Below, piece after piece: positions 6,392 to 60,572 of a stretch of 64,000 nt of DNA (within the stretch, counting starts at the first letter, position 1; each line of letters begins with the position of its first letter). Location of the stretch: positions 2,812-66,811 of the forward strand of contig CAZBDZ010000009.1 of assembly GCA_964490785.1 (NCBI GenBank), given 5' to 3'. Source of the stretch: an uncultured Phycisphaeraceae bacterium. GTDB taxonomy: Bacteria > Planctomycetota > Phycisphaerae > Phycisphaerales > UBA1924. The translations under genes were made by a program, and so were the position numbers. The notes beneath the pieces are model-generated. The model had not been told where the DNA came from and made no database searches. It worked only from the letters and a program-made list of their open reading frames with translations.

Positions 6392-6948
<557 letters not shown>

Positions 6949-30986: not shown

Positions 30987-32123
30987 TCAGTCTAACCAGT
31001 CCTTCACCTTCAACCGCTCCGGCACGTACACCTCCGTCACATACGAGATGTCCTTGGTGATCAGCGACTCGACCTCCATCTTGAAGCCGTTCTTCAGCAT
31101 CGCATCGATCTCGCGCTGCCACTCTTTCTTGTCCGTGAACCACGGGTACGCGGCGATTTGCTTGGCGCGGTTGATGTCGGTGTCGGTGAGGGCGATCTGG
31201 ACGTCGTCGCTCAGGCCGCAGCGGTCGTAGTCGATCGCGCGGATGCCGAGGAACTTCGCGTCGGGGATGGCGAGGCGCTCGGACTCGAAGGCGAGGTTGA
31301 TTGACCCCTGCTTCATCACGCTGTAGATGTAATGTCCCCACGGGTCGCAGTCGAGGAGGCAGTAGACGGGCAGTCTCAGTTCTTCGTGCAGTCGGCGGAG
31401 GAGGCGGCGCACGCCGCGGGGGGGCTGCCCGCCGCCTTCGGTCAGGATGCAGTTGTGCTTCTGCCAGAACTTGTCCTCGTTGAAGCGGGACCAGACGGTG
31501 TTCTTCTCGACGTGGAGGATGAACTTCGCGTCGCACTTCTTGAACTGGATGACGTCCGGCTCGCAGATGCTCGGAATGGCGTACCCGCCGGAGCCCATGC
31601 GTCGGCAGTCGATCTCGTCGCCGGAGTCCACGATGGTGATGTTGCCGACCATCGTTCCCGCTTTCTTGGCGAAGAGATGCAGTTCCTCGCGGAGCGAGCC
31701 GAGCGTTACTTCGAGGTCTTCGAGGATCGTGTCCGACTCGTCCTGGTCGGCGAAGGTTTTCTCTCTCGTGCCGGGGATGGTGTGGAGGGCCTTGTAGTAC
31801 ATGCCGCGGAGGCTGAGCGTCTTGCCGGCGTCGATGAGGGACTTGACGCCCGAGCCGAGGAGCATGGTCTGCATGAACTTCTTGGCCTGCCCGACGTTGA
31901 AGAGGTTGCGTTTCTGGGCGGCGTCGCCCATCTCGAGCGTGCGTCGCTTCTTGTTGAAGGTGGTGTTGGCGAGCGTGCGGGCGGGGACGTCCACCCACGG
32001 GTCGCGGTAGCCGAGCGACGACTTGGCGACGCCGTCCGCGAGCCCGACGAGGTGCTTCATCGTGCGCTCGTCGCGGGCTGCCACCGAGCGGGAGGTGCGG
32101 GAATCTGCGGTTCTCTTGGCCAT
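30987..32123 (-). CDS. top6A: DNA topoisomerase VI subunit A (Spo11 family)
   Basis: LRGMYY (catalytic Tyr region), Toprim FILHVEKNTVW, GGGQPPRGVRRLL, LLDCDPWGHYIYSV, KMEVESL. Confidence 0.9.
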   Translation of the reverse strand: MAKRTADSRTSRSVAARDERTMKHLVGLADGVAKSSLGYRDPWVDVPARTLANTTFNKKRRTLEMGDAAQKRNLFNVGQAKKFMQTMLLGSGVKSLIDAGKTLSLRGMYYKALHTIPGTREKTFADQDESDTILEDLEVTLGSLREELHLFAKKAGTMVGNITIVDSGDEIDCRRMGSGGYAIPSICEPDVIQFKKCDAKFILHVEKNTVWSRFNEDKFWQKHNCILTEGGGQPPRGVRRLLRRLHEELRLPVYCLLDCDPWGHYIYSVMKQGSINLAFESERLAIPDAKFLGIRAIDYDRCGLSDDVQIALTDTDINRAKQIAAYPWFTDKKEWQREIDAMLKNGFKMEVESLITKDISYVTEVYVPERLKVKDWLD

Positions 32124-44449: not shown

Positions 44450-44523
44450 GGGCCCGTAGCTCAGTTGGCTAGAGCGCGCCCCTGATAAGGGCGAGGTCGA
44501 ACGTTCGAATCGTTTCGGGCCCA
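44450..44523 (+). tRNA. tRNA-Ile (anticodon GAU)
   Basis: Hand-folded cloverleaf: acceptor GGGCCCG/CGGGCCC, D-arm GCTC..GAGC, anticodon stem CGCCC/GGGCG with loop CTGATAA, T-arm GAACG TTCGAAT CGTTT, discriminator A. CCA is not encoded. Confidence 0.9.
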
Positions 44524-44848: not shown

Positions 44849-46003
44849 GTGAGTAAGCGCTTCCTCATCGGTCTGGTCTGTGTCGCGGGTTCGGCGTCGT
44901 CGGCTCTCGCCTTGTCGAACGGCGACATCATCCTCACCAACTTCAACCTCGACGCCATCACCCTCATCTCGGATCCGGGTGGTGCGAACGCCATCAGCAA
45001 CCTGATCACCTTCAACGACATCCCCAGCGGCGGCGGCGACAACCCCGTCCGCCTCGGCGACATCACTCTCGCGCCCAACGGCGACTACTACGTCTCCGAC
45101 GGCTCAATCGTCACCGGCGACAACGACTGGGACACCTCGCGCATCATCAAGATCCAGGGGCTGCTCGGCGGCGCGCCCGTCGCGTCCAACTGGCACACCG
45201 GCGCGGGTGCCGGCGCCCTGATGAATCCCAACGGCATCCGCTACGACGAGAACTACGACGGCCTGTTCTGGGTCCAGACCCCCTTCCGCCGCACCGGCGT
45301 CGGGCAGATCGTCAACGACGGCATCTACGGCGCCCCGCTGGCCACGCCGGGCGACAACCTGTTCTTCCAGGAAGACACCACCGGCCCGCGCCCCTTCTAT
45401 GAGGCCGGCAACTACCTCGAGCGCGAGCCGGGCCAGAACTCCTACCTCGTCACGTCGCTCAACGGCGGCGTCGGCGGCGGGGCCAGCGACGGCCGCGCCT
45501 CCACCCTCTGGCGCTTCACCCCGGATATCAGCAACCCGGCCAACAGCACCATGACCCTCGTCCACGACTTCACGGGCGGCGACGCCGCCAGCACCCAGGC
45601 ACAAATCCGCGGCATCACCGCCGGCCCCAACGCGGGCGAGTACTTCATCACCAACACCAACACCGCCGGCGCCTTCGGACCCTTCGGCACGCCCGGCGTC
45701 TACCGCCTGCTCCTCGATGGGTCGGGCAACTTCCAGAGCCTCACCTTCATCACCGGGCAGGTGCTCGAACCCGAGGCCATCAAGTACAACCCCTTCCACA
45801 ACAAACTCGTCGTCGGCTCCACCATCGACCAGAACAACGACGGCGTGCCCGACGGCGGCATCTTCCAGATGGACCTCGACGGCTCAAACGTCGAACTGCT
45901 CCTCGCCAACACCCACGCACGAGGCTTCTCGATCGTCCCGACACCCGGTGCGATCTCCCTCCTCGGCCTCGGCGGCCTCGCCATGCTCCGCCGCCGCCGC
46001 TGA
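44849..46003 (+). CDS. Secreted protein with a PEP-CTERM anchor (possible beta-propeller)
   Basis: GTG start is preceded by GGAAGGAGAG. Signal peptide present. C-terminus VPTPGAISLLGLGGLAMLRRRR. Confidence 0.7.
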   Translation: MSKRFLIGLVCVAGSASSALALSNGDIILTNFNLDAITLISDPGGANAISNLITFNDIPSGGGDNPVRLGDITLAPNGDYYVSDGSIVTGDNDWDTSRIIKIQGLLGGAPVASNWHTGAGAGALMNPNGIRYDENYDGLFWVQTPFRRTGVGQIVNDGIYGAPLATPGDNLFFQEDTTGPRPFYEAGNYLEREPGQNSYLVTSLNGGVGGGASDGRASTLWRFTPDISNPANSTMTLVHDFTGGDAASTQAQIRGITAGPNAGEYFITNTNTAGAFGPFGTPGVYRLLLDGSGNFQSLTFITGQVLEPEAIKYNPFHNKLVVGSTIDQNNDGVPDGGIFQMDLDGSNVELLLANTHARGFSIVPTPGAISLLGLGGLAMLRRRR

Positions 46004-47503: not shown

Positions 47504-47683
47504 GTACTTCTCCCGTGCCGTCGGGGCGAAGTCGCGCGGGGTTCCGCTAGAATCCCGGGCCACGTTGCCGAGACGGCAGGGATCGGAGATTCCGCGGTGC
47601 AGGGCGCGAGTTGCGGAGTTGTTTGGGTCGGGTTGCCCCGTGGACCGATGAAAGGACCAATGAACGATGCAAAGGAGAGGGTC

Positions 47684-48415
47684 ATGAAGTTCGTGGTCGG
47701 CCCGCGTCCGCCGTTGGCGGGCAACTACCGCGCCCTCGACGAGGCGCGGGACGCGCACGCGCTCTATTTCGCGACGATGATGGCGCAGGATCCGCGGCTG
47801 GCGGGGTGCGTGCTTGATGTCGGGTCCGGCGCCAAGAGCCCGTCGGCGAAGCGGTTCGATGTGCCCTACGCGAAGATTGGGATCATGGACGGAGTGGACC
47901 CCCGGGCCGAGATCCACCAGAACACGCGGCTGAGAAACCGCTGGCAGGCGATGCTCGAGGATGCGCCGATCCCCGCGGAGTCATACGACGCGGCCGTGTC
48001 GGTCTTTGTGCTGGAGCATGTGTCCGATGCCGCTTCATTCTTGAAGGCGGTGCATCGTGTTCTGAAGCCCGGCGGGGTCTTCTACGGCCTCACGCCGCAC
48101 GCTCACCATCCATTCCCGCTCGCCGTGCGGCTGATTCAGTGGCTCCGACTCAAGGGGCGGAGCGGAGTCGGGGATGCGCGGGTGAATGACTACCCGGCGT
48201 ACTACCGGTGCAACTCGTTCGGCGCGATCCGGCGCGCGGCGGAAGCGGCAGGCTTCGCCTCGGGCGTCCTTCACTATCACCCCGCGATCAACTGGGACCT
48301 GTATTTCCCCGCCGGCCTGCGGTTCCTTCCTCACCTCTACGATTACTGCGTGGGCGTTCGATTCAGGCCGTTCTGGCAGCAGATCTTCCTGAAGTTGGAG
48401 AAGGCGCCGGGCTAG
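47684..48415 (+). CDS. Class I SAM-dependent methyltransferase
   Basis: ATG is preceded by AAGGAGAG. VLDVGSG; VLKPGGVFYG. Confidence 0.75.
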   Translation: MKFVVGPRPPLAGNYRALDEARDAHALYFATMMAQDPRLAGCVLDVGSGAKSPSAKRFDVPYAKIGIMDGVDPRAEIHQNTRLRNRWQAMLEDAPIPAESYDAAVSVFVLEHVSDAASFLKAVHRVLKPGGVFYGLTPHAHHPFPLAVRLIQWLRLKGRSGVGDARVNDYPAYYRCNSFGAIRRAAEAAGFASGVLHYHPAINWDLYFPAGLRFLPHLYDYCVGVRFRPFWQQIFLKLEKAPG

Positions 48416-48524: not shown

Positions 48525-49901
48525 TCAGGTCCTGGGTTCTTCGCCGTAATCGGAGAAGTCGCCGGCGTCGGACCAGTCGGAGTCGTCGGCATCTTCCGGA
48601 GTCGCGGGTGCCTGGGGGGCATCGGCATGAGTGTTGTCCCGGGCGACGTGCTCGGTCCACGCCCCCAAGGCGGCGGCGATCAGGAGGAATGAGACGGGCG
48701 AACTGACGCGCGACAGCATGTACCCCTCGAACATGGCGCCCGCGATGTACATGCCGTTGAGCCCGACAGCGAGGTCCGCGAGGCGCTTGTCGGTGGGGTC
48801 CTTGAGGGCGAAGCGGGCGCGGAAGACGGTGTACGACTTGTAGATCGAGACGAGGAGGAGTATCCCGACGAGCACGCCCATGAAGATGCCGAAGCCGGCG
48901 AGGGCGATGAGGATGCTGTTCTCGGAATAGGTCGCCCGTTCGGCGATGGAGGCCTTACCGAAGAGCGGAAACTCGAGAAACTCCTGCCAAAGCCCCTGCC
49001 ACGCGCGAGACCGCGTGTCGTCGGTCGAGGTCAGTCGCTCGAGTTGCAGCGTTCCTGTCGATTTGAGGATGGACAGAGCGCCGGCAAGGACAAGTCCCGC
49101 GATGGGAAGCAACAGGATCGACCGCCCGAGGCGGGAATAGAAGACCGCCGTGAGTCCGATGATCGCCATCCCGACGCCGGTTCGCGACGCGGTCCAGAAC
49201 AGGAGGGCGAGGTTCATCGCCGAGACGGCGGCCCAGATCGGGCGGTAGCGCGCCTTGAGGTCGTTGACCATCAGGAACGCGGTGGTCGTGAGGAAGAAAG
49301 CGAGGAGCACGGCGGCGTGCTGGGGGTTCGACAGCATGCCGTTGAATCGCGTGTATCCGCCGCCGAGGGTCAGGACCTTCCGGCGGATGACGAACTGAAC
49401 AACACAGGCGGCGATCCAGAGGATCGAGACCACGCCGACCACGCGGAGGATCTTCATGGCGTCCTCTCGGTCGTGGATGATTGACGGAAGAATGATGACC
49501 GCGGGAACCAGCGTCAGGAACGCAAACGCCGCGGACTCGGCCGCCGAGGTCAACTCGCCGCCCGTGGCTCGGACAAAGGCGCCGTAGAACCCGATGGCGA
49601 CGAGGAGGATGCCCTGCATGCCGACTCGCGACATCCGAACCTGGGAAAGATGAAAGACGACCCCCGCGAGGAGCAGCGCTCCGCATGCGGCGTAGATCTC
49701 GGATCGCCGCGCTTGGATGGGGATGAGCCAGGTCTGGACAGGGCGGCCCAACCAGTCGGTGGGCGCGCCGAGCGCCGACGCCATGAGCATCGCGCCGAAG
49801 ACGAAGATCGCCGCCTTGAACCGGAAGACCACCAACGCCAGCCCGGCCAGGCCGACGACGACTGCACCAATGAGGGTTTGCGGGCTCAGCCCTTCAAGCA
49901 C
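48525..49901 (-). CDS. O-antigen ligase/polymerase (Wzy_C)-like membrane protein
   Basis: About 11 TM segments, WTASRTGVGMAIIG and an acidic C-terminal tail. Confidence 0.7.
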   Translation of the reverse strand: MLEGLSPQTLIGAVVVGLAGLALVVFRFKAAIFVFGAMLMASALGAPTDWLGRPVQTWLIPIQARRSEIYAACGALLLAGVVFHLSQVRMSRVGMQGILLVAIGFYGAFVRATGGELTSAAESAAFAFLTLVPAVIILPSIIHDREDAMKILRVVGVVSILWIAACVVQFVIRRKVLTLGGGYTRFNGMLSNPQHAAVLLAFFLTTTAFLMVNDLKARYRPIWAAVSAMNLALLFWTASRTGVGMAIIGLTAVFYSRLGRSILLLPIAGLVLAGALSILKSTGTLQLERLTSTDDTRSRAWQGLWQEFLEFPLFGKASIAERATYSENSILIALAGFGIFMGVLVGILLLVSIYKSYTVFRARFALKDPTDKRLADLAVGLNGMYIAGAMFEGYMLSRVSSPVSFLLIAAALGAWTEHVARDNTHADAPQAPATPEDADDSDWSDAGDFSDYGEEPRT

Positions 49902-49970: not shown

Positions 49971-51059
49971 CTATCGGGCCAACGGCTCACTCGGTTCGCC
50001 GGATCGCGCGTTGTTTGGGGCTTGCTCGGGTCCGGAAGATGGTATTTCGATCTCGGCAACAAAGGGGCGGTGGTCGGACCTGAATCGCGGGCCGACGCGG
50101 ATCGAAAGGACTCGGAGCGGCTCCGAGGTCCACACCTTGTCGATCGGCAGCGAAAGCCAAGGGGGCATGATCGAAGGCCAGGTGCCGCCGGTCGCCAAGG
50201 GGGTCCACGCCGTCAGGCCGCTGTCGCGGGCGAACCGACGGTGGAGCCTGCCCGTGGGGGTCGAGTTGAAGTCGCCGGCGATGAGGATCGGGATTCGCGT
50301 TTGAGCGTGCCAATCGCGCAGGAGCCTCGCGGCCAGACCGGCGGACTCGAGGGAGCGTGCCCACGTCTCGCGCGATCGCGGCGATGGAGGGTGAATCGCT
50401 GAGAGGAGGAACTGCGAGCCGCCTTCGGGGGCGACAAGCATGCTGCGCCGGGCGGCGAAACTGAACTTCGTTTCCTCCGAGTATTCGGCGAGCGGGTGGA
50501 CCTCGGCGGGGAACCGGCTGAGGAGCATGATCGACCACATCAGGCCCTCGGTCGGCTCGATGAAGTAGGGGTAGTCGCGTTTGAGCCAGGGGTAGTCATC
50601 GAGCACGCCCCAGGGCGGCTCGATCAGGACGATGACGTCGGCCTTCTGGTCGCGGATCCATGTGAAGGCGTCGTTGTCGTGGCGCGAGAACTCCTCGCGG
50701 GCGTTGAACTCAACGATGCGGATGACGCGTCCCGTACCACCCCCGCCCCCCAGGGGGGCGCTTACGGAAGCGCGGGAGAGCAGCAGGGTTGAGGCGGCGG
50801 CGAGCAGGATGCTCACGGCAATCCGTCGTTGCCGGGTCGCCAGGAGAACAAGGCCGAGGAGGAGACAGGCGAAGCCTGCATGGGGCAGGAAGTGGGAGGC
50901 GAGGTCAAGCGCGTAAGGGCGGTTGGTCCAGAGGAGGAGGCCGACGAGGGACCAAGGCAGAATGCCGGCCCCGGTCATGAGCGCGCGCCCGGCGCGGTGC
51001 GGGCCGGCGGGGGCGGTCGCGGTGTTCGCGGTGTCGGCGGCTTCGTGTTTGATCGGCAC
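49971..51059 (-). CDS. Membrane-anchored endonuclease/exonuclease/phosphatase (EEP) family protein
   Basis: VIVLIEPPW, ILIAGDFNSTP, SDHRPFVAEI. Start is GTG 51059 or ATG 50978. Confidence 0.8.
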   Translation of the reverse strand: MPIKHEAADTANTATAPAGPHRAGRALMTGAGILPWSLVGLLLWTNRPYALDLASHFLPHAGFACLLLGLVLLATRQRRIAVSILLAAASTLLLSRASVSAPLGGGGGTGRVIRIVEFNAREEFSRHDNDAFTWIRDQKADVIVLIEPPWGVLDDYPWLKRDYPYFIEPTEGLMWSIMLLSRFPAEVHPLAEYSEETKFSFAARRSMLVAPEGGSQFLLSAIHPPSPRSRETWARSLESAGLAARLLRDWHAQTRIPILIAGDFNSTPTGRLHRRFARDSGLTAWTPLATGGTWPSIMPPWLSLPIDKVWTSEPLRVLSIRVGPRFRSDHRPFVAEIEIPSSGPEQAPNNARSGEPSEPLAR

Positions 51060-51076: not shown

Positions 51077-52060
51077 ATGCGGCAGGTGTTCATTGTTGGC
51101 GCGTCGATCTGCGCGGCACTGGCCGTCGGGGCGATCCTGTGCGTCGCGGGTGATGTTCGTGGAGGGGGGGAGAAGCGTTCGAGTCGCCACTGGTGCGTCA
51201 CCGGCTCGCATTCCAAGGCCGTCGATCTCGCGGGAACCGGAATCGCGGATGATGCCGTGATTTTCTATGAGCAGGAGTTCGGCATCATCCCCCGGTATTG
51301 GAAGGGGAAGATGGAGCATGGCGGCGTGCCGCAGGAGGCGGACCTGAATGCGCACATCGCCAAGGTCCGGCGCGACGTGGTCCGTGAGATTCCCAACCCG
51401 AACTGGTCCGGCTGCGCGATCATTGATCTTGAAGCGTGGGGGCCGCTGTGGGAGCCCGCCGCGGAGGAATACAAGCGTCAGTCGATCACGCTGGCGGCGA
51501 GGAATCACCCGACCCGATCGCGGTACGAGGTCGAGCGCTTGGCGAAGGCGAACTACGAGAGCGCCGCCCGCCGATTGATCCTGGCGACGATTCGGGAGTG
51601 CAAATCGCTCCGCCCGCGGGCGAAATGGGGGTTCTATTCCTGGCCTTATCCCGAGTGGGGCGCGGAGACGGGTCGGCTGGCGTGGCTGTGGAACGAGGTT
51701 ACGGCGATGTACCCGGTGTGCTACGTCGTGTACAAGTCGGCGGAGGGCGGCCGGCACGAGGAGGGCTTCGCCCCGCCGGGGGAATACGAGGAACACTGCC
51801 GGAACCTTCTCGCGCTCCATCGGCGGCTGGCCGAGAGCAGGAAGCCGGTCTTGCCCATGGTCTGGGTGCGGTATCACGAGATCAACAAGGTGTTTGACGG
51901 GCAGTTTCTCGATCAGCGCGATCTCGAGCGGATGCTGCGCCTGCCCATCGAAGAAGGCGGCGACGGGCTTGTGTTCTGGGATCACATCGCCTCCGAGTCG
52001 ATGGCGCGCGAGTACGGCGTATACATGAGGGATCGAGTCGCGCCGCTGCTTCGGCAGTAA
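51077..52060 (+). CDS. Glycoside hydrolase family 56-like hyaluronidase homolog
   Basis: HGGVPQ, WSGCAIIDLEAWGPLW (DxE catalytic motif), YESAARRLILATIRECKSLRPRAKWGFYSWPY, VLPMVWVRY, GGDGLVFW. All are colinear with human HYAL1 and bee-venom hyaluronidase as recalled from memory. N-terminal TM/signal segment. Confidence 0.8.
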   Translation: MRQVFIVGASICAALAVGAILCVAGDVRGGGEKRSSRHWCVTGSHSKAVDLAGTGIADDAVIFYEQEFGIIPRYWKGKMEHGGVPQEADLNAHIAKVRRDVVREIPNPNWSGCAIIDLEAWGPLWEPAAEEYKRQSITLAARNHPTRSRYEVERLAKANYESAARRLILATIRECKSLRPRAKWGFYSWPYPEWGAETGRLAWLWNEVTAMYPVCYVVYKSAEGGRHEEGFAPPGEYEEHCRNLLALHRRLAESRKPVLPMVWVRYHEINKVFDGQFLDQRDLERMLRLPIEEGGDGLVFWDHIASESMAREYGVYMRDRVAPLLRQ

Positions 52061-52083: not shown

Positions 52084-53073
52084 TCATCGGAGAGTCGCGC
52101 GCTGCATCCAGGCCCATTGGCGGGCGAGGCCGTCGTCAAATGACGTGGCAGGCCTGAAGCCGAGTTCGTGCTCGCTGCGGGCGAGGTCGGCGTAGGTGCG
52201 CTCAACATCGCCCGGGGGGATCGGTTTCCGTTCGATGACGGCCCGGCAATCGACGACGCGCTCGATGGCGGCGATCATGTCGTTGAGCGAAACGGGTCTG
52301 TGCCCGCCGAGGTTCCAGATGCGGTAGCCGTGCGCGGGAATCCGAGCATGGGCGGCGAGGACGCCCGCGACGATGTCGTCGATGAAGGTGTAGTCGCGGC
52401 TGGTGGCGCCGTCGCCGAAGACGGGGATAGGTTCGCCGCGGGCGATTCGGGCCATGAAGGTTGAGATGGCGAGGTCGGGGCGTTGGCGCGGGCCGAAGAC
52501 GGTGAAAAAGCGCAGCATCGCGACGCGCATGCCGTGGACGTGGTGGTAGGTGTGCCCGATGAGTTCGCAGGCTTTCTTGGTGGCGGCGTAGGGGCTGATG
52601 GGCTGGTCCACGGGATCGGTCTCGGCGAAGGGGACCTTGGAGTTATTGCCGTAGACGGAGGAGGAGGAGGCGCAGACGAATCGGTTGCAACCGGCACGTC
52701 GGGCGGCGTCGAGGAGGATGGTCGTGCCGCGGACGTTGACATCGGCGTAGAGAACGGGCTGGGCGATGCTGGGGCGGACGCCGGCCCGGGCGGCGAGGTG
52801 GATCACGCCGGCGAAGTGCTCGCGCTCGAAGAGGGCGTTCATCGCGTCGGCGTCGCGGATGTCTTCCTCGACGAGCGAGAACGAGGCGCGAGCCGATTCG
52901 GCGGCGCGCATGATCGAGGCGATGTTGGCGCGCTTCAGCGTCGGGTCGTAGAAAGGATCGAAGTTGTCAAGCCCGACGACGCGCGCGCCCTCGCGGAGCA
53001 GGGCCTCGGCGACGTGCGACCCGATGAATCCCGCCGCTCCCGTGACCAGGATGCACTCGCCGCTGTCGCTCAA
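52084..53073 (-). CDS. NAD-dependent sugar-nucleotide epimerase (UDP-glucuronate 4-epimerase-like)
   Basis: VTGAAGFIGSH, LDNFDPFYD, YAATKKACE. TTG start. Confidence 0.9.
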   Translation of the reverse strand: MSDSGECILVTGAAGFIGSHVAEALLREGARVVGLDNFDPFYDPTLKRANIASIMRAAESARASFSLVEEDIRDADAMNALFEREHFAGVIHLAARAGVRPSIAQPVLYADVNVRGTTILLDAARRAGCNRFVCASSSSVYGNNSKVPFAETDPVDQPISPYAATKKACELIGHTYHHVHGMRVAMLRFFTVFGPRQRPDLAISTFMARIARGEPIPVFGDGATSRDYTFIDDIVAGVLAAHARIPAHGYRIWNLGGHRPVSLNDMIAAIERVVDCRAVIERKPIPPGDVERTYADLARSEHELGFRPATSFDDGLARQWAWMQRATLR

Positions 53074-53352: not shown

Positions 53353-55149
53353 TCAGGTGAGGGGCACGCCGAACCACAAAGCCGAGGCCGATACGCAGAC
53401 GGCCCCGACGAGGAGCGTGAGCGGCCCACCGAAGCGGATGAAGTCGCTCCAGCGGTATCCGCCCGGGCCGGCGACCATGAGGTTGGTCTGGTAGCCCAAT
53501 GGGGTGATGAACTCGGCGGAGGCGGCAATTGTGAGGCAAACGATCAGGGCCATCGGCGGGAGCCCTGCGTCGCCCGCGATGCGGATGGCGACGGGAAACA
53601 TGAGCGCGGCGGCGGCGGTATTGCTCATCAGCATGGTGAACGCGAGCGTCAGGCCGTAGACCGCCGACATCACGCCGATCGGCCCGAGCGAGTCGCGCGA
53701 GGCGACGACCTGGGCGGCGAGAGTCTCGGCGAGGCCTGTCTTGTCCATCGCGCGGCCGAGTGCGACGGACGCGCCGATGACCAGGAGGACGGACCAGTCC
53801 ACCCCTCGTCGTGCCTGGGCGGCGGTGCAGCAGCGCCCCGCGAGCATCAGCCCCGCACCGACGAGCGCGCCCGTGAGGGGATCGACGATCTCGGTGCTGA
53901 GCAAGAGAACAACGCCCGCGAGAACGGCGAGAGCGAAGGTCGCCCGCTCGTGGCGGGGCGGCGCGGCGTCGTCCAGTTCGCTCACGAGATGAAAGGCGGT
54001 GGAGTCGCGGTGCCGACGCGCAAAGCCGGGGCCGGTTTCGAGGAGGAGCGTATCGCCCGGCTCGATCACGATGTCGCCGATCTTCCCCGCGAGGCGGTGC
54101 CCGTGGCGATGCACGGCGACAACGACCGCGCCGTAGCGCGTGCGGATGCCGGCGTCGCGGATCGTCTGGCCGATGAGCGGCGACATGGGGGAGACCACGG
54201 CCTCGGCGAGCGTCATCGTCGGACGATCCGCCCCGGGCTGGCCCTCGTCGGTCGCGGGGACGAGGCCCCGGATCTTCTGCAGGTCCACGACGGACTCCAG
54301 CACGCCGACGAAGACGAGGGCGTCGCCCGCCTGCAGGCGTTCCTCCGGACCGACGGCGGTGATGGTTTCGGACGCGCGGTCGATGCGGCTGAGGAAGAGG
54401 TTGGGAAGGTGGCGAAGCCCGGCGCCTTCGACGGTCTGCCCGACGAGCGGGGAGCCGGCTTCGACACGCATGGCGGTCATATAGCGGCGCGCATCGGGGC
54501 CGGCGTCGAAGGCTTCGGCGCGCTTGGGGAGCAGCGTGCGGCCGAGGAGGAGCATGTACGCCGCCCCCGCGACCGCGACGCAGAGGCCAACGGGAGTGAG
54601 AGTGAACATCTCCATTTCAGGGACGATCGTGCCGGGATTCTGGCGGTTGTGCTGCTGGATGATGGCGGCGACGGTGAGGTTGGTGCTGGTGCCGATGAGG
54701 GTGCAGACCCCGCCGAGGATCGCAGCGAAGGAGAGGGGCATGAACAGGAGCGACGCCGAGATGCGCGCCCGCTTCGCCACGCCGTGAAGCACGGGCAGGA
54801 ATGCGGCGACGAGCGTGGTGTTGTTCGTGAAGGCCGAGATGGGGGCGACGGACCCGATGAGCCGCGCCTGGGCGACGAGGGCGCTTCGCGGCCTTCCGAG
54901 GAGGCGGGCGCTGACGATCGACATCGCCCCCGTCTCCTTCAGGCCCACGGCGACGACATAGAGAAGGGCGATGGTCGCCACCCCCGGGTTGGCGAACCCC
55001 GCGACGGCGTCGGCGGGCGCGATCACGCCGCACACCAACAGCACCCCCACCGCACCGAGCAACGCGACATCCGCCGCCAGCCGCCCCGAGGCGAGGGCCC
55101 CGAGCATGACAAGCAGAGTTCCGGCGGTGAGCCAGGCGTGGAAGGACAT
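53353..55149 (-). CDS. SLC13/DASS-family permease with two central TrkA-C (RCK_C) domains
   Basis: 598 aa. TM blocks flank two RCK_C-like soluble repeats (VEAGSPLVGQTV... and VVSPMSPLIGQTI...). Confidence 0.85.
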   Translation of the reverse strand: MSFHAWLTAGTLLVMLGALASGRLAADVALLGAVGVLLVCGVIAPADAVAGFANPGVATIALLYVVAVGLKETGAMSIVSARLLGRPRSALVAQARLIGSVAPISAFTNNTTLVAAFLPVLHGVAKRARISASLLFMPLSFAAILGGVCTLIGTSTNLTVAAIIQQHNRQNPGTIVPEMEMFTLTPVGLCVAVAGAAYMLLLGRTLLPKRAEAFDAGPDARRYMTAMRVEAGSPLVGQTVEGAGLRHLPNLFLSRIDRASETITAVGPEERLQAGDALVFVGVLESVVDLQKIRGLVPATDEGQPGADRPTMTLAEAVVSPMSPLIGQTIRDAGIRTRYGAVVVAVHRHGHRLAGKIGDIVIEPGDTLLLETGPGFARRHRDSTAFHLVSELDDAAPPRHERATFALAVLAGVVLLLSTEIVDPLTGALVGAGLMLAGRCCTAAQARRGVDWSVLLVIGASVALGRAMDKTGLAETLAAQVVASRDSLGPIGVMSAVYGLTLAFTMLMSNTAAAALMFPVAIRIAGDAGLPPMALIVCLTIAASAEFITPLGYQTNLMVAGPGGYRWSDFIRFGGPLTLLVGAVCVSASALWFGVPLT

Positions 55150-55187: not shown

Positions 55188-55895
55188 TCAGAATCGGGAC
55201 TCGTACTCGCGTGCAACTCGGGCAAGGGCCGCACCGTACTCCGCGCGAGTTTCTCGTTCATTCACCCACGCGAAACCGTGTGGAGGCGTGTTCGTCGCGG
55301 CGAACCTGGGCAACAGGAGTTCATCAAAGGCGGATGACGCCTCCTTGTCCAGGCGTCGCGCAGCCTCGTTCGCTTCTTGCGCGGGATGCCTATGTCGGCG
55401 CCCGTCCGTGGCGAACTTTCGCTTCCCCTCGAATGAGACGTAGGAGGCGGCGTGATTGATTCCTACAATCCCAATGCAGATCGGCTTCGTCGTCCTCGCA
55501 CGAAAATGCTCGGCTTGACGCTTGAGATCGCTGATCACTCTGTCGACCTGCTTGATCATCGCCTTGGCCAGCACCTTGACTTCCACGCCGATTTCAATGG
55601 TGGCAAGCCGCCCGCGGGGAACCAGGGAATCGGGGACCACAACCACGTCGATTCCCGGGACCGCCTCACCGAGGGTCCCGTCGCCGCGCCTCCGGCGGCG
55701 CCCGACGGTCACATTTGCGGCGTTGACCGCGACGATGCCGGCATTGACGCGGTCCGCGAATCGGCGGGATCGATCCAATGCGAGGATATCCCCGAAAAAG
55801 TGCGAGGCGACATAGTCGCCCAGTGTCGACCGCCGATGGTTGTATCGCCGTCCATCAAAGAGGGAACGGAAAGCATCGAGAAGTCGGTATTCCAC
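55188..55895 (-). CDS. Putative type II restriction endonuclease (PD-(D/E)xK-like)
   Basis: GTG start directly abuts the methyltransferase stop. Candidate motif VVPD...EIGVEVK. About 55% GC. Confidence 0.55.
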   Translation of the reverse strand: MEYRLLDAFRSLFDGRRYNHRRSTLGDYVASHFFGDILALDRSRRFADRVNAGIVAVNAANVTVGRRRRRGDGTLGEAVPGIDVVVVPDSLVPRGRLATIEIGVEVKVLAKAMIKQVDRVISDLKRQAEHFRARTTKPICIGIVGINHAASYVSFEGKRKFATDGRRHRHPAQEANEAARRLDKEASSAFDELLLPRFAATNTPPHGFAWVNERETRAEYGAALARVAREYESRF

Positions 55896-56780
55896 TCACG
55901 CGCTCCTCGCGACCGCGGCCGGCTTCGGGCTCCCGTGCGTCTCGAATTCGACACTGGCACGCAAAGACGTCTGGGCGAGCCGCTTGCGGATCAGGTCTAC
56001 ATATCTCGATTCAAGTTCAACAGCGATCGAGTGGCGACCGCTCTCGATTGCGGCGACGGTCGTGGTTCCGGTGCCGGCAAACGGGTCGAGGACGGTGTCG
56101 CCGGTGAAGCTGAACATCCGAACAAGACGCCGCGGGATTTCGATGGGATAGGGCGCGGGATGGTCCCGTCGCAGTTGCCCGGTCACGTCGCCCCAGATGG
56201 GGGTGAACCATCGAGCGTAATCGTCCGTGGAGATGCGGCTCAGTTTCTCCTGGGTCGGCGTGGGCGTTCGGTAGCCGCCCGGCTTGCGGAGAAACAGCAC
56301 ATGCTCGATATCGCTTTTCACAACACCATTCGGCAAGTTCGGTTTCCCGAGGAACCGGCGCGACGACGATGCCTCAAGCCGAATGTTCGAGACCTTCAGC
56401 CAGCGGATCGGAGTCAGGTTGTCGAATCCGATTCTCCGGCAGCGAACCTGAATATCCGCCGACAACGGCAGGACATGATGCCGGCCTGCCTGCTTTCGCG
56501 AGATACAGATATCGCCGACAACGCAAGCGACGCGCCCGCCGGGGACGAGAACCCGGAAGCATTCACCCCACACGCGATCCAACTCATCCAGGAACAACTC
56601 GTAAGACTGGATATTGCCGAGTTGTCGGGGACTGTCCGAATAGCGAACGAGGGCGCCATACGGCGGAGACGTCACAATCAAATGAATGCTCTCAGACGGG
56701 ATGAACGAGAGGTCGCGCGAGTCTCCTTGACGGATGAGGTGCTTGGTGAGCATTGTGTGGGGCTCCAAGACTGACCGCAT
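55896..56780 (-). CDS. Beta-class DNA methyltransferase, probably N4-cytosine
   Basis: Motif IV TSPPY precedes motif I DPFAGTGTT. Start is ATG 56780 or 56753. Confidence 0.9.
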   Translation of the reverse strand: MRSVLEPHTMLTKHLIRQGDSRDLSFIPSESIHLIVTSPPYGALVRYSDSPRQLGNIQSYELFLDELDRVWGECFRVLVPGGRVACVVGDICISRKQAGRHHVLPLSADIQVRCRRIGFDNLTPIRWLKVSNIRLEASSSRRFLGKPNLPNGVVKSDIEHVLFLRKPGGYRTPTPTQEKLSRISTDDYARWFTPIWGDVTGQLRRDHPAPYPIEIPRRLVRMFSFTGDTVLDPFAGTGTTTVAAIESGRHSIAVELESRYVDLIRKRLAQTSLRASVEFETHGSPKPAAVARSA

Positions 56781-56797
56781 CTTACACCATTCCGGTG

Positions 56798-57826
56798 TCA
56801 CGCCATTCCCACGGCCCGCATCGCCGCCAGCACTCGTCCGTGCAGCGCGGGGGTCGCCACCACGATGCCCTTGTTCGCTTCCAGCCCTTTGCCCTTGCTG
56901 AAGTCGAGTTCGCGCCCGTGGATGTCGGTCACGCCGCAGCCGGCTTCGATGGCGACGAGGGCGCCCGCGGCGTGGTCCCAGATGCGCTCGATGTAGCCGC
57001 TCTTCTTCGGCAGGCGCAGGTAGACATCGGCCTGCCCGCGAGCGACGATCGCGTACTTGCCCTGGCCGTCGAGGCGCAGCGGCTCCGCGAGTTCGCCGAC
57101 GCGCTCCATGATGAGTTCGGCGGCGTCGTGGCTCGTGTGCCCGCTCTCGACGCTCTCGCACAGGCGCACCGGCTCGCCCTCGGCGGGCTCGGCCCGGCGG
57201 ATGCGCAGGGGTTCGTCGTTCGCACGGTCCGCCGAGACCTCGCAGAGTCCCTCAGCGGCGACGGCGTAGTAGATCGTCCCGTGCGGATCGGGCTCGTCCA
57301 GCGGACGATTGAAATCCTTTGAGAGGTTGGGGCAACCCAGCACGCCGAGGACGGGCGAACCGTTCTCGATCCACGCGAGCGAGATGGCGTACTGCTCGCC
57401 CCGAAGGAAGCCCTTGGTCCCATCGATGGGATCGAGCGTCCAGAACCCGTGGGTCGAGTCCCCTTCCGGGGGGGGATCGCCCGCGCCGACGTCGATCGCG
57501 GCGAGGACGTCGTCCATGGTCGCGCCGGGCCAGACCTTGCGGACCTCGAACAGCACGGCGTCGGCAACGTCCCGACGACCCTCGGCGAGGTGCAGGCGCA
57601 AGGCCGCGGCGTTTTCCTCGGCGACAAGTCGGACGCTCGGCAGAGACTCCGCGAGCGTCCGCGCGATGACCGCCTGCGAGGCGAAGTCGGCGACGGTGAC
57701 GGGGCTCCTGTCGTCCTTGGTCAGCGTTCGCAAGGCCGGCAGGTCCCGCTGAACCTCCCGGCACACAATGCACGCATGAAACACCGCCGAGCGGGCGGCT
57801 TCAAGTTTGAGCGGAAGGTCGGACAC
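56798..57826 (-). CDS. cysQ: 3'(2'),5'-bisphosphate nucleotidase (HAL2/CysQ, inositol monophosphatase family)
   Basis: WTLDPIDGTKGF and WDHAAG. Proposed GTG start at 57826. Upstream codons are repeat read-through. Confidence 0.85.
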   Translation of the reverse strand: MSDLPLKLEAARSAVFHACIVCREVQRDLPALRTLTKDDRSPVTVADFASQAVIARTLAESLPSVRLVAEENAAALRLHLAEGRRDVADAVLFEVRKVWPGATMDDVLAAIDVGAGDPPPEGDSTHGFWTLDPIDGTKGFLRGEQYAISLAWIENGSPVLGVLGCPNLSKDFNRPLDEPDPHGTIYYAVAAEGLCEVSADRANDEPLRIRRAEPAEGEPVRLCESVESGHTSHDAAELIMERVGELAEPLRLDGQGKYAIVARGQADVYLRLPKKSGYIERIWDHAAGALVAIEAGCGVTDIHGRELDFSKGKGLEANKGIVVATPALHGRVLAAMRAVGMA

Positions 57827-57840
57827 ACGGACACTGTAGC

Positions 57841-57990
57841 GAGCGGAAGGATGGGAGGGGGAAGTGGACAGTGGACAAAGAGAGCAAGGAACCGCCTTCC
57901 TATTCACTTTCCACTGCCCTGCATCCCCGCCCGCCCGCCACGGCGAATCTTCGGTCTTCCGATTTCAACTTTCCGCTTTCCGCTTTTCCC
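57841..57990. repeat. Heptamer-built composite element, copy A (decayed)
   Basis: gagcggaagg..., (GTGGACA)x2 at 57864-57877, ccgcctt spacer, ctttccactg, (TTTCCGC)x2 at 57970-57983. Confidence 0.7.
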
Positions 57991-58837
57991 CCCCGCCACC
58001 TGTCAGCCCACCGAACCGGCGGTCGCGCCCAGCATACGCGCGCACGGCCTCGCGCAGATGCTCCGCGCCGAAGTCGGGCCAGTAGGTCGGCGTGACCCAC
58101 AGTTCCGCGTAACTGATCTGCCACAAAAGAAAGTTCGACACGCGCATCTCCCCCGCCGTGCGGATCAAGAGGTCGGGGTCCGGCAGCCCGGCCGTGTTCA
58201 GCCGGGACGAAAGCGTCGCCTCGTCGATGGACTCCGGGTCCAGCCGACCGTCGCGCGCGTCGCGGGCGATCGAGCGCACCGCGTCGATGATCTCGCCCCG
58301 CGACCCATAGTTCACCGCGAGGCACAGGGTCGCCCCCGTGCAGCGCGAGGTCGCCCGGATCGTCTCGTCGAGCGCGGCCAGGGCCTCCGGGGGTAGCCCC
58401 TCCCGCCGGCCGATCTGCACAAGGCGGATGTTCTCACTGACCAGGTGCTCGCGCTCGCCGCTCATGTAGGTGAAATACAGCCGCATGAGTTCGCCCACCT
58501 CGTCGGAGGGCCGCTTCCAGTTTTCGCTGGAGAAGGAGAAAAGCGTGATGAACTCGATCCCCAGTCGGCCCGCCTCGTCGATCGTCCGCCGCACCGCCGC
58601 CGCACCGTTCCGGTGCCCGAACACGCGCGGAAACCCGCGCGCCGACGCCCACCGGCCGTTCCCGTCCATGATGATGGCCACATGCCTCGGCACGCGACTC
58701 GGCGCAACCCCCGGCACCAGCCGCAGCGGGTCCGCCCGCGGATTCACCCGACGCATCCGCGCCACCGCCTCGCGCTCGCGCGGATCGGCGATCGCATCCA
58801 AAGGCGTAACCTCGGCGGCGGTGGAAGTGCTGGCCAT
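57965..58837 (-). CDS. uppS: Undecaprenyl-diphosphate synthase (isoprenyl transferase)
   Basis: IIMDGNGRWA, FSSENWKRP, IRTAGEMRVSNFLLWQ. Internal ATG at 58837. Confidence 0.93.
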   Translation of the reverse strand: MASTSTAAEVTPLDAIADPREREAVARMRRVNPRADPLRLVPGVAPSRVPRHVAIIMDGNGRWASARGFPRVFGHRNGAAAVRRTIDEAGRLGIEFITLFSFSSENWKRPSDEVGELMRLYFTYMSGEREHLVSENIRLVQIGRREGLPPEALAALDETIRATSRCTGATLCLAVNYGSRGEIIDAVRSIARDARDGRLDPESIDEATLSSRLNTAGLPDPDLLIRTAGEMRVSNFLLWQISYAELWVTPTYWPDFGAEHLREAVRAYAGRDRRFGGLTGGGGEKRKAES

Positions 58838-58890
58838 GAGCCGCGAAAGCGTAGCGACCCGCGAGCACCGGCGAGCAAGGCCGAAAGAAG

Positions 58891-59050
58891 GAGCGGAAGG
58901 GGCCGTGAACAGTGGACAATGGACAGTGGACAGTAGAAGAAAGGCACAGGGTGCCGCCTTCATGTCCAATGTCCCCTGTCCACTGTCCACTGTCCACTGT
59001 TCGCCCCCCTCCTCATTTCCGCTTTCCGCTTTCCGTTTTCCGCTTTTCCT
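58891..59050. repeat. Heptamer-built composite element, copy B (intact)
   Basis: 27-nt inverted repeat gaacagtggacaatggacagtggacag (58907-58933) / ctgtccactgtccactgtccactgttc (58976-59002), followed by (TTTCCGC)n at 59016-59050. Confidence 0.8.
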
Positions 59051-60572
59051 CCCCCCTCCCCATCGCCTCCGCCATCTCCGCTCCCATTGCCCGATACTCC
59101 GGCGTCATCATCACCGTCCCGTGGTTCGTGTTCGGCACGACCGTGATCCGGCCCGCGCCCGCCTTTCCGTTCATCGCGTAGCCGAGCGACTCCAGCCGAC
59201 CCCTCAGCAACTCCACCGCCGCGTTGAGATTCCACTCGTCAATCCCCCCCACGATGATGCGCACCCGATCACGGAAGATCGGCCCAAGCCGGTCGGGGTT
59301 CCTCGCCACGAGGTCGGAGATGTCGTAGCGCCGGAAGGCGTCGAGCGCGTCCTTGTCGATCGCGCCGGTCTTCTCATCAAAGAGGCCGCGCGGCCCGCGC
59401 TCGCCGCGCGGGCCGAACACCGCCCACCATGAATCCCACTGCTGCCCGCTCGTATTGAACGGCCCCCGCGCGTCCTCCCACGCGTTCTCCTGCCGGATGG
59501 TCATCAGGGCCACGCCGCCCTGTTCGTTGCTGGCGATCTCCTTGCCCGCCGCGTCCACATAGAAACTGTCCTGTTCGTAGATGTTCACCTTCTGGAACGC
59601 GCGAAAGTCCACGGGGTCCGGCGAGCCCGCGAAGCAGTGCCCGAACGTCTCCGGATAGGTGATCGCCAGCCAGATGCTCGCCCATCCGCCGGACGAGTGC
59701 CCCGTGATGACGCGCGCCCCCGGCCGCGCGTCGATCGGGAACTTCTCTTCGAGCGCCGGGATGAGTTCGCTCACCAGCGCCCGCCCGCATGGGCCGTTGT
59801 TCTCCGAGTCGGCAAACAGCGTGTGCCCGTTGGGCGATTCCGGGTCGAGAACGATGATGAACGCGTGCTTGCGCAGTTCCCCGCCATAGGGGCTGAACGC
59901 CCCCATGCGGACGATCGCGTTCGCAAAGCGATGGTCGCCGCCGAACCCCGGGACGACGTAGACCGCGCCGTAAGTCTTCGCCGGGTCGAAGCCCTCCGGC
60001 CGAATCACCCCTGCGCGGAGCATCACGTCCTCCTTGCGGAAGTCCGAGAGCAAGGCGGAGCGAACCTCGAACCACACCCCCCCCGGCAACGCGGCCGGGG
60101 GCTCCGCCTCGACCACCTCCGTCAAGGGCAGGTCCACCGTGAACGCCTCGTCCGCTCTCTTCGTGACGGACACAACCTCCGAAAAGAGATTCCCCGGCTC
60201 GCGCCGCCAGTCGGAGTTCAGCGGGTTCACGTCAAGCACCGCCTGAGCGCGATAGGACCCCGCCGGCAGATCATCCACCGCGCACGGAAACCCCGCCACG
60301 CCGCGCCCCACGTCCATCGTCGCGCCGGGAGGCAGGCTCGCCACATCCACGCCGAAGATCGGCTGCGGGTCCTCGTAAAAAGGCCCGTCCCCCGGCTCGG
60401 CCCGAGGCGGCACCCGCGCCCCCTCGCGGATCAGAAACACGCACAGCCGCCCCCGCGCCGCCTCCGCGCGCACCCCGCCGTCAAACCACACCCGGAACGC
60501 CGGCGTCTCCCCGCGAGCCGGAACAACCAGGGACGCGAGCGCGAAGAGTGATATGAAAAGCCGTCGCATCAT
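59013..60572 (-). CDS. Secreted alpha/beta-hydrolase (esterase D / enterochelin-esterase-like family)
   Basis: Signal peptide MMRRLFISLFALASLVVPARG. GHSSGGWASIW nucleophile elbow. Confidence 0.75.
   Translation of the reverse strand: MMRRLFISLFALASLVVPARGETPAFRVWFDGGVRAEAARGRLCVFLIREGARVPPRAEPGDGPFYEDPQPIFGVDVASLPPGATMDVGRGVAGFPCAVDDLPAGSYRAQAVLDVNPLNSDWRREPGNLFSEVVSVTKRADEAFTVDLPLTEVVEAEPPAALPGGVWFEVRSALLSDFRKEDVMLRAGVIRPEGFDPAKTYGAVYVVPGFGGDHRFANAIVRMGAFSPYGGELRKHAFIIVLDPESPNGHTLFADSENNGPCGRALVSELIPALEEKFPIDARPGARVITGHSSGGWASIWLAITYPETFGHCFAGSPDPVDFRAFQKVNIYEQDSFYVDAAGKEIASNEQGGVALMTIRQENAWEDARGPFNTSGQQWDSWWAVFGPRGERGPRGLFDEKTGAIDKDALDAFRRYDISDLVARNPDRLGPIFRDRVRIIVGGIDEWNLNAAVELLRGRLESLGYAMNGKAGAGRITVVPNTNHGTVMMTPEYRAMGAEMAEAMGRGEEKRKTESGKRK

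Follow-up and report, generated by a model that had tools for sequence, protein, structure and literature searches.

The gene described here encodes a glycoside hydrolase of family 56 (GH56) from an uncultured Phycisphaeraceae bacterium. It is located on contig CAZBDZ010000009.1 of assembly GCA_964490785.1, in a stretch of 64,000 nt (positions 2,812 to 66,811) that was analysed as a whole and is called the window below. The 327 amino acid (aa) protein is encoded divergently from a membrane-anchored phosphoesterase of the EEP superfamily, behind which a polytopic Wzy_C-type membrane protein (Wzy-like protein) is encoded. On its other side, the gene for a sugar-nucleotide epimerase converges with it (Table 1). 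An earlier note, made from the sequence alone, had called the locus a metazoan-type GH56 hyaluronidase homologue in a bacterial envelope-glycan cluster, and it had described the neighbours (EEP, Wzy_C-like protein, methyltransferase and epimerase) correctly. By hidden Markov model, fold and catalytic motif, the open reading frame (ORF) is a member of GH56, and its gene keeps its place in a cluster for the assembly/modification of polysaccharides even between diverged genomes. We propose, with a probability of about 0.55, that the protein is an extracytoplasmic retaining endo-beta-N-acetylhexosaminidase that processes an acidic polymer made by the cell itself and sulfated in some lineages.

The family was assigned with the Pfam model as a proxy for dbCAN/CAZy. 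PF01630 (Glyco_hydro_56) matches residues 59-309 with 151.9 bits (E=2.7e-44, cutoff 23.2 bits), corresponding to positions 46-309 of the 335 in the profile. In the Pfam scan of the protein, no second family was matched. When all PDB sequences were searched with phmmer, human HYAL1 (2pe4, 1.8e-28) and bee venom hyaluronidase (Hya; 1fcq, 1.2e-26) were found together with Ves v 2 (2atm) and PH-20 (9jub), and all significant matches were GH56 enzymes. In these alignments, IIDLEAW of the query lines up with VIDWEAW and VIDFESW. All five motif blocks in which the earlier note had seen a resemblance to HYAL1 and the bee enzyme are present in the translation: HGGVPQ (81-86), WSGCAIIDLEAWGPLW (110-125), LRPRAKWGFYSWPY (178-191), VLPMVWVRY (258-266) and GGDGLVFW (294-301). 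The AlphaFold2 model, for which 14 homologues were used (predicted local distance difference test, pLDDT, 89.9; predicted template modelling score 0.84), is poor only in the N-terminal 32 residues. Compared with the PDB by Foldseek, its first six matches are all GH56 (E 1e-18 to 1e-21, template modelling score (TM) 0.72-0.76), with a root mean square deviation of 2.8 Å from bee Hya. The best match outside the family is Cwp19, a peptidoglycan hydrolase of C. difficile (E 1e-4, TM 0.44), and the C-terminal domain of PgaB (4p7o, TM 0.46) is among the distant matches. A different TIM-barrel family, the outcome that the earlier note had named as fatal to its view, is ruled out by this distance, and the Asp-x-Glu motif is aligned to the catalytic pair of GH56.

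The N-terminus contains a single hydrophobic segment (residues 4-22) followed by V-A-G, in agreement with the transmembrane or signal segment noticed earlier. The N-termini of the homologues resemble it, and that of one of them (P0012) has a lipobox-like motif (L-A-A-C). This is compatible with a bacterial signal peptide or signal anchor, which would direct the enzyme out of the cytoplasm.

For a residue map of the active site, 31 bacterial homologues were aligned (MAFFT) with animal reference fragments from the PDB search. Both the HMMER and the MAFFT alignments equate Asp117-x-Glu119 with D111/E113 of bee Hya and D129/E131 of HYAL1. The D and the E are invariant in all 31 bacterial homologues and in 14/14 close homologues. 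Trp301 (bee W301) is kept in 31/31 and Tyr216 (bee Y227) in 29/31 sequences, and the position of Tyr187 (bee Y184) is occupied by Y in 26 and by F in 5 of them. For a snake-venom GH56 enzyme (svHyal), quantum mechanics/molecular mechanics calculations identified the Glu as acid/base and the Asp as assistant in forming an oxazoline/oxazolinium intermediate, while Tyr230 keeps the acetamido carbonyl in place, Tyr183 sets the orientation of the water and Trp305 forms a wall of the pocket (PMC13080975). A D/E double mutant of a wasp enzyme lost its activity (PMC6892566). By analogy, Glu119 would serve as acid/base, Asp117 would orient and stabilise the 2-acetamido group in substrate-assisted catalysis, and Tyr216, Tyr187 and Trp301 would form the acetamido pocket; the enzyme appears to be catalytically competent.

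Other positions are changed. R116, R244 and E247 of the bee enzyme (the last presumably E268 of HYAL1) are replaced by Gly122, His240 and Asn243, and Y286 of HYAL1 by Met261. A deletion removes the C189-C201 disulfide loop of the animal enzymes; the comparison covers this pair, the second animal disulfide being outside the reference fragments used. In svHyal, Arg115 and two lysines bind the hyaluronan carboxylates in subsites +2 to +4 (PMC13080975). Since this Arg, equivalent to bee R116, is now Gly122, hyaluronan is less likely as a substrate, and activity of the query on it appears doubtful. Judged by these residues, the -1 subsite and its chemistry seem to be retained and recognition on the aglycone side seems to differ. 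A beta-linked N-acetylhexosamine (HexNAc) would still be required at -1, and the polymer is probably not hyaluronan. The label 'metazoan-type' is thus right as to homology with GH56, while the protein itself falls into a non-animal clade without the C189-C201 loop, and there into a sub-clade without R116, R244 and E247. Lacking these animal-type hallmarks, it is best classified as a distinct subfamily that is still inside GH56.

GH56 has long been regarded as specific for animals or holozoans (bioRxiv 211789). The literature extends it beyond animals only to choanoflagellates and one filasterean, and it ascribes the use of lyases to bacteria. In a 2024 review of microbial enzymes that degrade hyaluronan, GH56 is placed with mammals and venoms, and one preprint counts GH56 in soil Acidobacteria and reads the expansion as degradative capacity. 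When 5.8 billion proteins were searched by word index, only 14 relatives of the query came up, all unnamed or 'hypothetical'; PF01630 is present in all 14, and one of them comes from a Phycisphaerae metagenome-assembled genome (MAG). An exhaustive HMMER search of 1.84 billion representatives at 50% identity detected 1,088 clusters with E<=1e-3, 643 with E<=1e-10 and 68 with E<=1e-30. Bacterial GH56 is not covered by any NCBIfam model. The earlier statement that GH56 is overwhelmingly an animal family is correct for the characterised enzymes and the literature, but 104 of the 157 best domain-covering clusters are not animal-type and have a better score with the query than with any animal reference. 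Its extension to poxviruses found no support, as the BFVD viral structure library contained no GH56-like fold.

In neighbour-joining (NJ) trees (298 columns, capped distances), 63 clusters without the Cys loop and without bee E247 group with the query. A non-animal group of 30 clusters and an intermediate group of 11 clusters retain E247, and the animal-type group comprises 52 clusters, among them HYAL1, bee Hya and Ves v 2; 48 of these 52 keep the Glu. The groups, including that of the animal enzymes, are separate with a transfer bootstrap of 0.88-0.95, but with a strict bootstrap of only 0.27-0.48. These trees settle neither deep order nor root and thus give no direction for an ancient inter-domain transfer, if there was one. 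Cluster look-ups yielded next to no names or taxonomy for the other non-animal groups. The 30- and 11-cluster groups, which include the Ignavibacteriales protein MCB9211861.1, share with the query PF01630, the D-x-E motif, the Tyr/Trp pocket and the absence of the animal cysteines. Unlike the query, they keep bee Glu247, are often longer and carry CHU_C/FlgD_ig, PKD or Laminin_G_3 modules, and glycan synthesis plays no part in the one genomic context that was inspected. When one genome per GTDB species was scanned, eight Phycisphaerae/Phycisphaerales/Phycisphaeraceae MAGs and one 'Bdellovibrionales' contig emerged as carriers; the scan used two exact peptide patterns, and these 9 loci undercount the bacterial carriers. 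Named members elsewhere are one Planctomycetota MAG and one Ignavibacteriales MAG (MCB9211861.1). From these comparisons, the query appears to belong to a diverse, unnamed non-animal GH56 branch, in a clade centred on Phycisphaerae, and it would deserve a place in a new bacterial GH56 subfamily. The bacterial branch is large in sequence space, unnamed and unstudied.

Two distant members stand apart. In L009 (related loci are given L numbers), the 'Bdellovibrionales' MAG contig CAYHNK010000283.1, a distant GH56 gene (1449-2618, 27% identity) has a weak N-terminal EGF_2 match, and a neighbouring gene has a weak Dickkopf_N-like Cys-rich match; this contig may be eukaryote-like or misbinned. In L023 (GCA_964578845.1, 10001-21599), the GH56 protein P0064 of the intermediate group is encoded amid archaeal-looking genes (HVO_A0261_N, PF1765-like, YGR210-like GTPase) and adjoins a giant protein of >4,664 aa with Laminin_G_3 repeats. 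GH56 may thus occur in archaea.

The long-held restriction of GH56 to animals or holozoans (bioRxiv 211789) would make a recent transfer from such a donor, eukaryotic contamination or a decaying pseudo-enzyme an obvious thought, and yet this explanation is extremely improbable. The gene has a native composition, its G+C content at third codon positions (GC3) being 0.82 compared with 0.81-0.91 for the neighbours, in a window with ~66% G+C throughout. It lies on a 64-kb bacterial contig surrounded by housekeeping genes, synteny is kept across independent MAGs at 32-59% identity, and the NJ trees place it apart from the animal-type sequences. A pseudo-enzyme is at odds with the invariant catalytic residues. 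In a near-identical strain, the GH56 protein differs at one residue. Because the same gene arrangement is found in independent MAGs and GC3 matches, contamination and misassembly are excluded. Composition, synteny and tree position together effectively refute a recent animal transfer. Of the two origins considered in the earlier note, inter-domain transfer and an ancient bacterial branch, an ancient or separate bacterial branch is favoured, and a recent transfer from animals is not.

The conservation of the neighbourhood carries the functional argument. Genes for the Wzy-like protein and EEP flank GH56 in the window as well as in L001/L017, L003, L007, L018 and L024. GH56 identity to the query amounts to 53% in L001, 39% in L003, 32% in L007 and 54% in L018. 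The identity of the partners falls in step with that of GH56, from 66% to 33% for the Wzy-like protein and from 59% to 40% for EEP, as co-inheritance predicts. EEP adjoins GH56 also in L025, and L002 contains an EEP fragment at the contig end. In L013 (GH56 35% identical), a Wzy_C gene is divergent from GH56 and EEP is absent. Counted by lineage, a Wzy-type gene is adjacent to GH56 in 7, and EEP, AsnB and the epimerase are found near it in 7, 8 and 6, respectively. The association was also tested in reverse: A search with EEP revealed a narrow family (34 matches, best annotation 'YafD-like EEP'), and both of the two homologues located on long contigs adjoin GH56, with a Wzy-type gene on their other side.

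Further genes recur around this core. A gene for an AsnB-type glutamine amidotransferase lies directly downstream of GH56 in 7 loci, co-directional and with gaps of ~20-270 bp that vary with the gene call; in L003, it is nearby on the opposite strand. Its nearest NCBIfam model is the XrtA/PEP-CTERM-associated amidotransferase, below cutoff. The epimerase is encoded near GH56 in L001, L002, L007/L025, L018 and L024. GT4/GT2 transferases and sulfotransferases are recurrent additions to the module in related loci, and an ATP-sulfurylase is present at L001 and L007/L025. L007/L025 display the order ATP-sulfurylase, GT4, sulfotransferase, Wzy-like, ORF and EEP, followed by GH56, GT4, sulfotransferase and epimerase, with GH56, GT4 and sulfotransferase co-directional and near-abutting or overlapping. 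In L025, a third sulfotransferase is encoded nearby. The ORF of 580-590 aa between EEP and the Wzy-like gene (L007 4970-6748 (+), L025 10020-11768 (-)) matches no Pfam family and has no homologue in the window. L008 has IMPDH and aroDE on either side of a unit of two genes, Sulfotransfer_1 and GH56. Of the cluster sulfotransferases, one has the bacterial structure 3rnl as its closest entry, followed by heparan-sulfate 3-O-sulfotransferases and NDST. At least one glycan-synthesis-type neighbour is found in 12 of ~16 distinct Phycisphaerae-type loci.

A second recurrent Phycisphaeraceae context comprises Metallophos, an EamA transporter, GH56 and a CBS protein (L021 5851-9855, L022 7803-12088); L021 has two tandem GH56 paralogues. 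The MAG GCA_964391865.1 contains both a GH56 copy in the Metallophos/EamA context and an AsnB-linked copy (L004).

The EEP protein has three hydrophobic segments within residues 26-98. In its AlphaFold2 model (pLDDT 90.3), residues 19-97 form a helical membrane bundle, behind which comes a full EEP core, and N119, D141, D263, N265, D307, D329 and H330 are invariant in the homologue alignment. TDP2, human neutral sphingomyelinase, APE1, nocturnin and S. aureus beta-toxin are matched by the fold, all near 1e-10, so this search could not separate the nuclease, sphingomyelinase and phosphatase subfamilies; the sequence search of the PDB found nocturnin only (3e-4). According to the model, EEP would be a membrane-tethered Mg-type phosphoesterase, and it is a reasonable guess that it acts on a lipid- or polyprenyl-phosphate-linked glycan. 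Its annotated start is 17 bp from that of GH56. Met28 (~50978) is a likelier start because homologue alignments begin at residues 23-35, and therefore the divergent intergenic region would span ~100 bp. A promoter/terminator consensus scan around the GH56 gene found nothing.

In the Wzy-like protein, at least 7 segments are hydrophobic. It shares 33% identity (414 aa, E 6e-45) with the protein of L013, for which Wzy_C is recorded, unmarked, in precomputed Pfam matches; Wzy_C is also on record for the L024 orthologue. A PDB sequence search with the Wzy-like protein found nothing, and NCBIfam holds no model for either this protein or EEP. The epimerase scores below every NCBIfam equivalog cutoff. 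Its nearest PDB entries are 5u4q, 6zl6/6zla and MoeE5 (6kv9), of which we take 6zl6/6zla and MoeE5 to be UDP-glucuronate 4-epimerases.

Table 1. Features of the 64-kb window (positions in the window).
Feature	Position	Strand	Basis
Bacterial class A RNase P RNA	6393-6943	-	Rfam 199.8 bits
PMT_2 protein	20029-21939		Pfam
Topoisomerase VI subunit A/Spo11 homologue	30987-32123	-	PF21180, PF04406, PF20768
tRNA-Ile(GAT)	44450-44523	+	tRNA scan
384-aa secreted protein	44849-46003	+	
S-adenosylmethionine-dependent methyltransferase	47597-48415	+	Methyltransf_11/23 (Pfam)
Polytopic Wzy_C-type (O-antigen polymerase/ligase-like) membrane protein	48525-49901	-	Weak Wzy_C match and orthologues
Membrane-anchored EEP-superfamily phosphoesterase, divergent from GH56	49971-51059	-	PF03372, 72.4 bits
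GH56-family glycoside hydrolase	51077-52060	+	ATG start, 327 aa, PF01630
NAD-dependent sugar-nucleotide 4-epimerase (SDR), UDP-uronate-4-epimerase-like, convergent with GH56	52084-53073	-	Epimerase/GDP_Man_Dehyd (Pfam)
DASS/SLC13-type anion symporter with TrkA_C domains	53353-55149	-	TIGR00785, 100.8 bits, below cutoff
N6/N4 DNA methylase (PF01555) and adjacent 235-aa ORF without Pfam match	55188-57161	-	Pfam, GC3
3'(2'),5'-bisphosphate nucleotidase (PAP phosphatase, HAL2-type)	56798-57907	-	TIGR01330, 290.4 bits, cutoff 267.05
Palindromic element at both uppS ends	57846-57994 and 58877-59054		

The Pfam scan of the window covered 36 of 40 genes called by GC3 and the two ORFs of the probable restriction-modification pair. 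Beyond the module, the window mostly contains housekeeping genes, among them gyrA, tyrS, a sigma-70 factor, PPDK, alr, topoisomerase VI-A, glycogen phosphorylase and a methionine gamma-lyase-type pyridoxal phosphate enzyme. RNase P RNA and tRNA-Ile(GAT) are the sole Rfam/tRNA matches, and no further GH56 copy was found in the 64 kb. The envelope-glycan cluster of the earlier note is borne out by the glycan context of the related loci; in the window itself, the module is small, lies among housekeeping genes and has no glycosyltransferase close by. Of a complete Wzx/Wzy pathway, the Pfam scan found only the Wzy_C-like protein and the distant PMT_2 protein, and homologues of the AsnB, GT4, ATP-sulfurylase and sulfotransferase proteins of the related loci were not found in the window.

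The methyltransferase may be a glycan-modifying accessory and could belong to the module; methyltransferases flank the module also in L003, L019 and L025. The symporter adjoins the epimerase also in L001, L002 and L018, and its 78% identical orthologue in L017 has Na_sulph_symp/CitMHS/TrkA_C Pfam matches. The nucleotidase acting on 3'-phosphoadenosine 5'-phosphate (PAP) is of the HAL2 (eukaryote/yeast-type, TIGR01330) and not of the bacterial CysQ kind. In L024, the epimerase adjoins a homologue of this PAP phosphatase (TIGR01330, 258.7 bits). The enzyme would clear the by-product of sulfation dependent on 3'-phosphoadenosine 5'-phosphosulfate (PAPS), which might link it to the module. The DNA methylase and the 235-aa ORF, probably a restriction-modification pair, are inserted between symporter and PAP phosphatase and have a lower GC3 than the surrounding genes. 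The PAP phosphatase gene is followed by uppS.

The following mechanism can be envisaged. The module of Wzy_C-type polymerase/ligase, membrane EEP and divergent GH56 would be inherited vertically and serve the envelope, where it could build an acidic surface polymer containing HexNAc. The epimerase might supply galacturonic or glucuronic acid (GlcA) and AsnB might provide amide groups, some lineages would add sulfate, and that of the window perhaps methyl groups. GH56 would cut this HexNAc/uronic-acid polymer of its own cell after beta-HexNAc, for trimming, chain-length control or release. With sulfation or amidation in some lineages, the polymer might be termed glycosaminoglycan (GAG)-like. 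A role on the cell's own polymer is favoured by the sulfate-type symporter and the PAP phosphatase kept beside the window module. The functional argument extrapolates from related loci, the window locus itself being without transferases and sulfotransferases.

In its function, the query most resembles, by analogy, hydrolases of other families encoded in exopolysaccharide (EPS) loci. PslG/GH39, BcsZ/GH8, PelA, the C-terminal domain of PgaB and ExoK/GH16 are such enzymes, and they trim, size or release the polymer in the Psl, cellulose, Pel, poly-N-acetylglucosamine and succinoglycan systems, respectively. Like them, the query would be an extracytoplasmic glycoside hydrolase co-encoded with the machinery for the polymer that it presumably cuts. 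In contrast to them, it belongs to a different family and mechanism class. To our knowledge, none of the Psl, Bcs, Pel, Pga and Exo systems pairs its hydrolase with a membrane EEP.

Several observations weigh against the processing of an endogenous polymer. No glycosyltransferase, sulfotransferase, flippase or initiating transferase is encoded near the module in the window, and the Wzy_C label of the window protein is below cutoff (23.5 bits, Pfam cutoff 31.7) and rests on better-scoring orthologues. Cleavage and location of GH56 were judged by hydropathy and by eye. Loss of bee Glu247 in the query's sub-clade, a residue kept in other non-animal groups, could have altered the activity. In the literature searched, no characterised bacterial GH56 was found. 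Four of the ~16 loci (L006, L010, L021 and L022) have GH56 without a glycan-synthesis neighbour, some genomes hold GH56 paralogues in unrelated contexts, and long non-animal members carry tails of the type IX secretion system (CHU_C/FlgD_ig), PKD or Laminin_G_3.

The paralogues outside glycan clusters and the modules on other non-animal members would suit a secreted hyaluronidase- or chondroitinase-type scavenger, which degrades exogenous GAG-like polymers of animals, algae or microbial EPS for carbon. So would the substrates of all characterised GH56 enzymes, hyaluronan or chondroitin, and the degradative reading of the acidobacterial expansion. This alternative is unlikely. Among the annotated genes of the window, no sulfatases, lyases, SusC/D-like proteins, unsaturated glucuronyl hydrolase or uronate catabolism genes are found, and therefore it is not a utilisation locus. 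Moreover, GH56 is co-inherited and apparently operonic with biosynthetic GT4, sulfotransferase and AsnB genes, and the carboxylate-binding Arg of the venom enzymes is lost. Where the earlier note had left the choice between an endogenous polymer and host or algal GAGs, the endogenous one is favoured; the window lacks the polysaccharide utilization genes that the other would lead one to expect.

Alternatively, the enzyme could be a transglycosylating remodeller that, together with the Wzy-type protein, rearranges or cross-links the growing polymer on the periplasmic side or transfers segments of it there. The oxazoline/oxazolinium intermediate of retaining, substrate-assisted hydrolases is open to sugar acceptors, and transglycosylation was observed for mammalian and venom GH56 (PMC11669647). 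The tight and ancient pairing with the Wzy_C protein would agree with this, and the changed plus-subsites could favour acceptor binding. The same data fit simple hydrolysis, however, and we know of no EPS-cluster glycoside hydrolase of any family that acts mainly as a transglycosylase, so that such a role is rather improbable.

Similarly, bond chemistry would permit a peptidoglycan endo-beta-N-acetylglucosaminidase that cleaves between N-acetylglucosamine and beta-1,4-linked N-acetylmuramic acid (GlcNAc-beta-1,4-MurNAc) for envelope remodelling or insertion of a glycan-export apparatus: GH56 cuts beta-1,4 bonds after HexNAc, and MurNAc, like GlcA, has a carboxylate. Cwp19 is the next-best fold after GH56, though weak and similar at the generic TIM-barrel level, and alr and uppS are present in the window. 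AsnB-type enzymes amidate peptidoglycan, too, in some bacteria. The recurrent partners, however, are Wzy_C, GT4, sulfotransferases and epimerase and not genes for peptidoglycan synthesis or division, which leaves this activity with a slim chance.

Processing of the cell's own polymer, the reading that we prefer, touches on sulfated polymers known from other bacteria. In the synechan xss cluster of Synechocystis, sulfotransferases are reportedly combined with glycosyltransferases, and Wzy is said to have been discussed. For Pontiella sulfatireligans, a member of the Planctomycetes-Verrucomicrobia-Chlamydiae (PVC) bacteria that are reported to secrete sulfated GAG-like exopolymers, a putative sulfated GAG cluster was described that contains sulfotransferases and glycosyltransferases as do L007/L025, L001 and L008; in contrast to the loci considered here, neither GH56 nor a membrane EEP is listed in the parts of that report available to us (PMC7356697). 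According to the same parts, GAG-type sulfotransferases were unknown in prokaryotes as of 2020, and sulfated GAG-like polymers are present in granular sludge and in anammox granules, where their producers are not known (PMC7356697). It is tempting, but tentative, to suppose that a true GAG analogue is produced by Phycisphaerae and perhaps by further PVC bacteria, a HexNAc/uronic-acid polymer with sulfation of the heparan-sulfate 3-O-sulfotransferase type and/or amidation and with a dedicated GH56/Wzy/EEP module. If so, the animal GAG toolkit of GH56 and carbohydrate sulfotransferases would be matched in bacteria and might even have arisen there, and Phycisphaerae would become candidates for the producers of the sulfated GAG-like polymers in granular sludge and anammox granules.

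Compared with animal GH56 enzymes (HYAL1 2pe4, PH-20 9jub, bee Hya 1fcq/1fcv, Ves v 2 2atm), the query has the same distorted (beta/alpha) barrel and the same Asp-x-Glu and Tyr/Tyr/Trp pocket, which predicts the same retaining cleavage after a beta-linked HexNAc. It differs from them in being only 23-30% identical, in the absence of the C189-C201 loop and of the EGF-like C-terminal domain, and in its putative bacterial signal/anchor and its place in a bacterial glycan-assembly module. A family known from textbooks as animal, with roles in sperm-egg fusion, venoms and tumour biology, has a large unnamed bacterial radiation, which in Phycisphaerae appears hard-wired into a surface-glycan module, often with GAG-type sulfotransferases. 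Should the proposed role be true, the gene set could be used to find bacterial producers of sulfated GAG-like polymers in PVC bacteria and wastewater granules. The disulfide-free and non-glycosylated GH56 might be expressed more easily than the animal enzymes, and the origin of the holozoan GAG hydrolase would be reopened as a question.

Three further observations concern the window outside the module. The palindromic element of ~150 nt at both ends of uppS looks like a repetitive extragenic palindrome or a miniature inverted-repeat transposable element. It consists of (GTGGACA)n/(TGTCCAC)n heptamer runs with a hairpin of 57-61 nt (74-91% complementary) and of (TTTCCGC)n runs. A homologue of topoisomerase VI subunit A/Spo11 is encoded in this bacterial genome. 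Finally, the 384-aa secreted protein matches no Pfam or NCBIfam family and has a PEP-CTERM-like C-terminus (…VPTPGAISLLGLGGLAMLRRRR), which hints at an exosortase-type sorting system.

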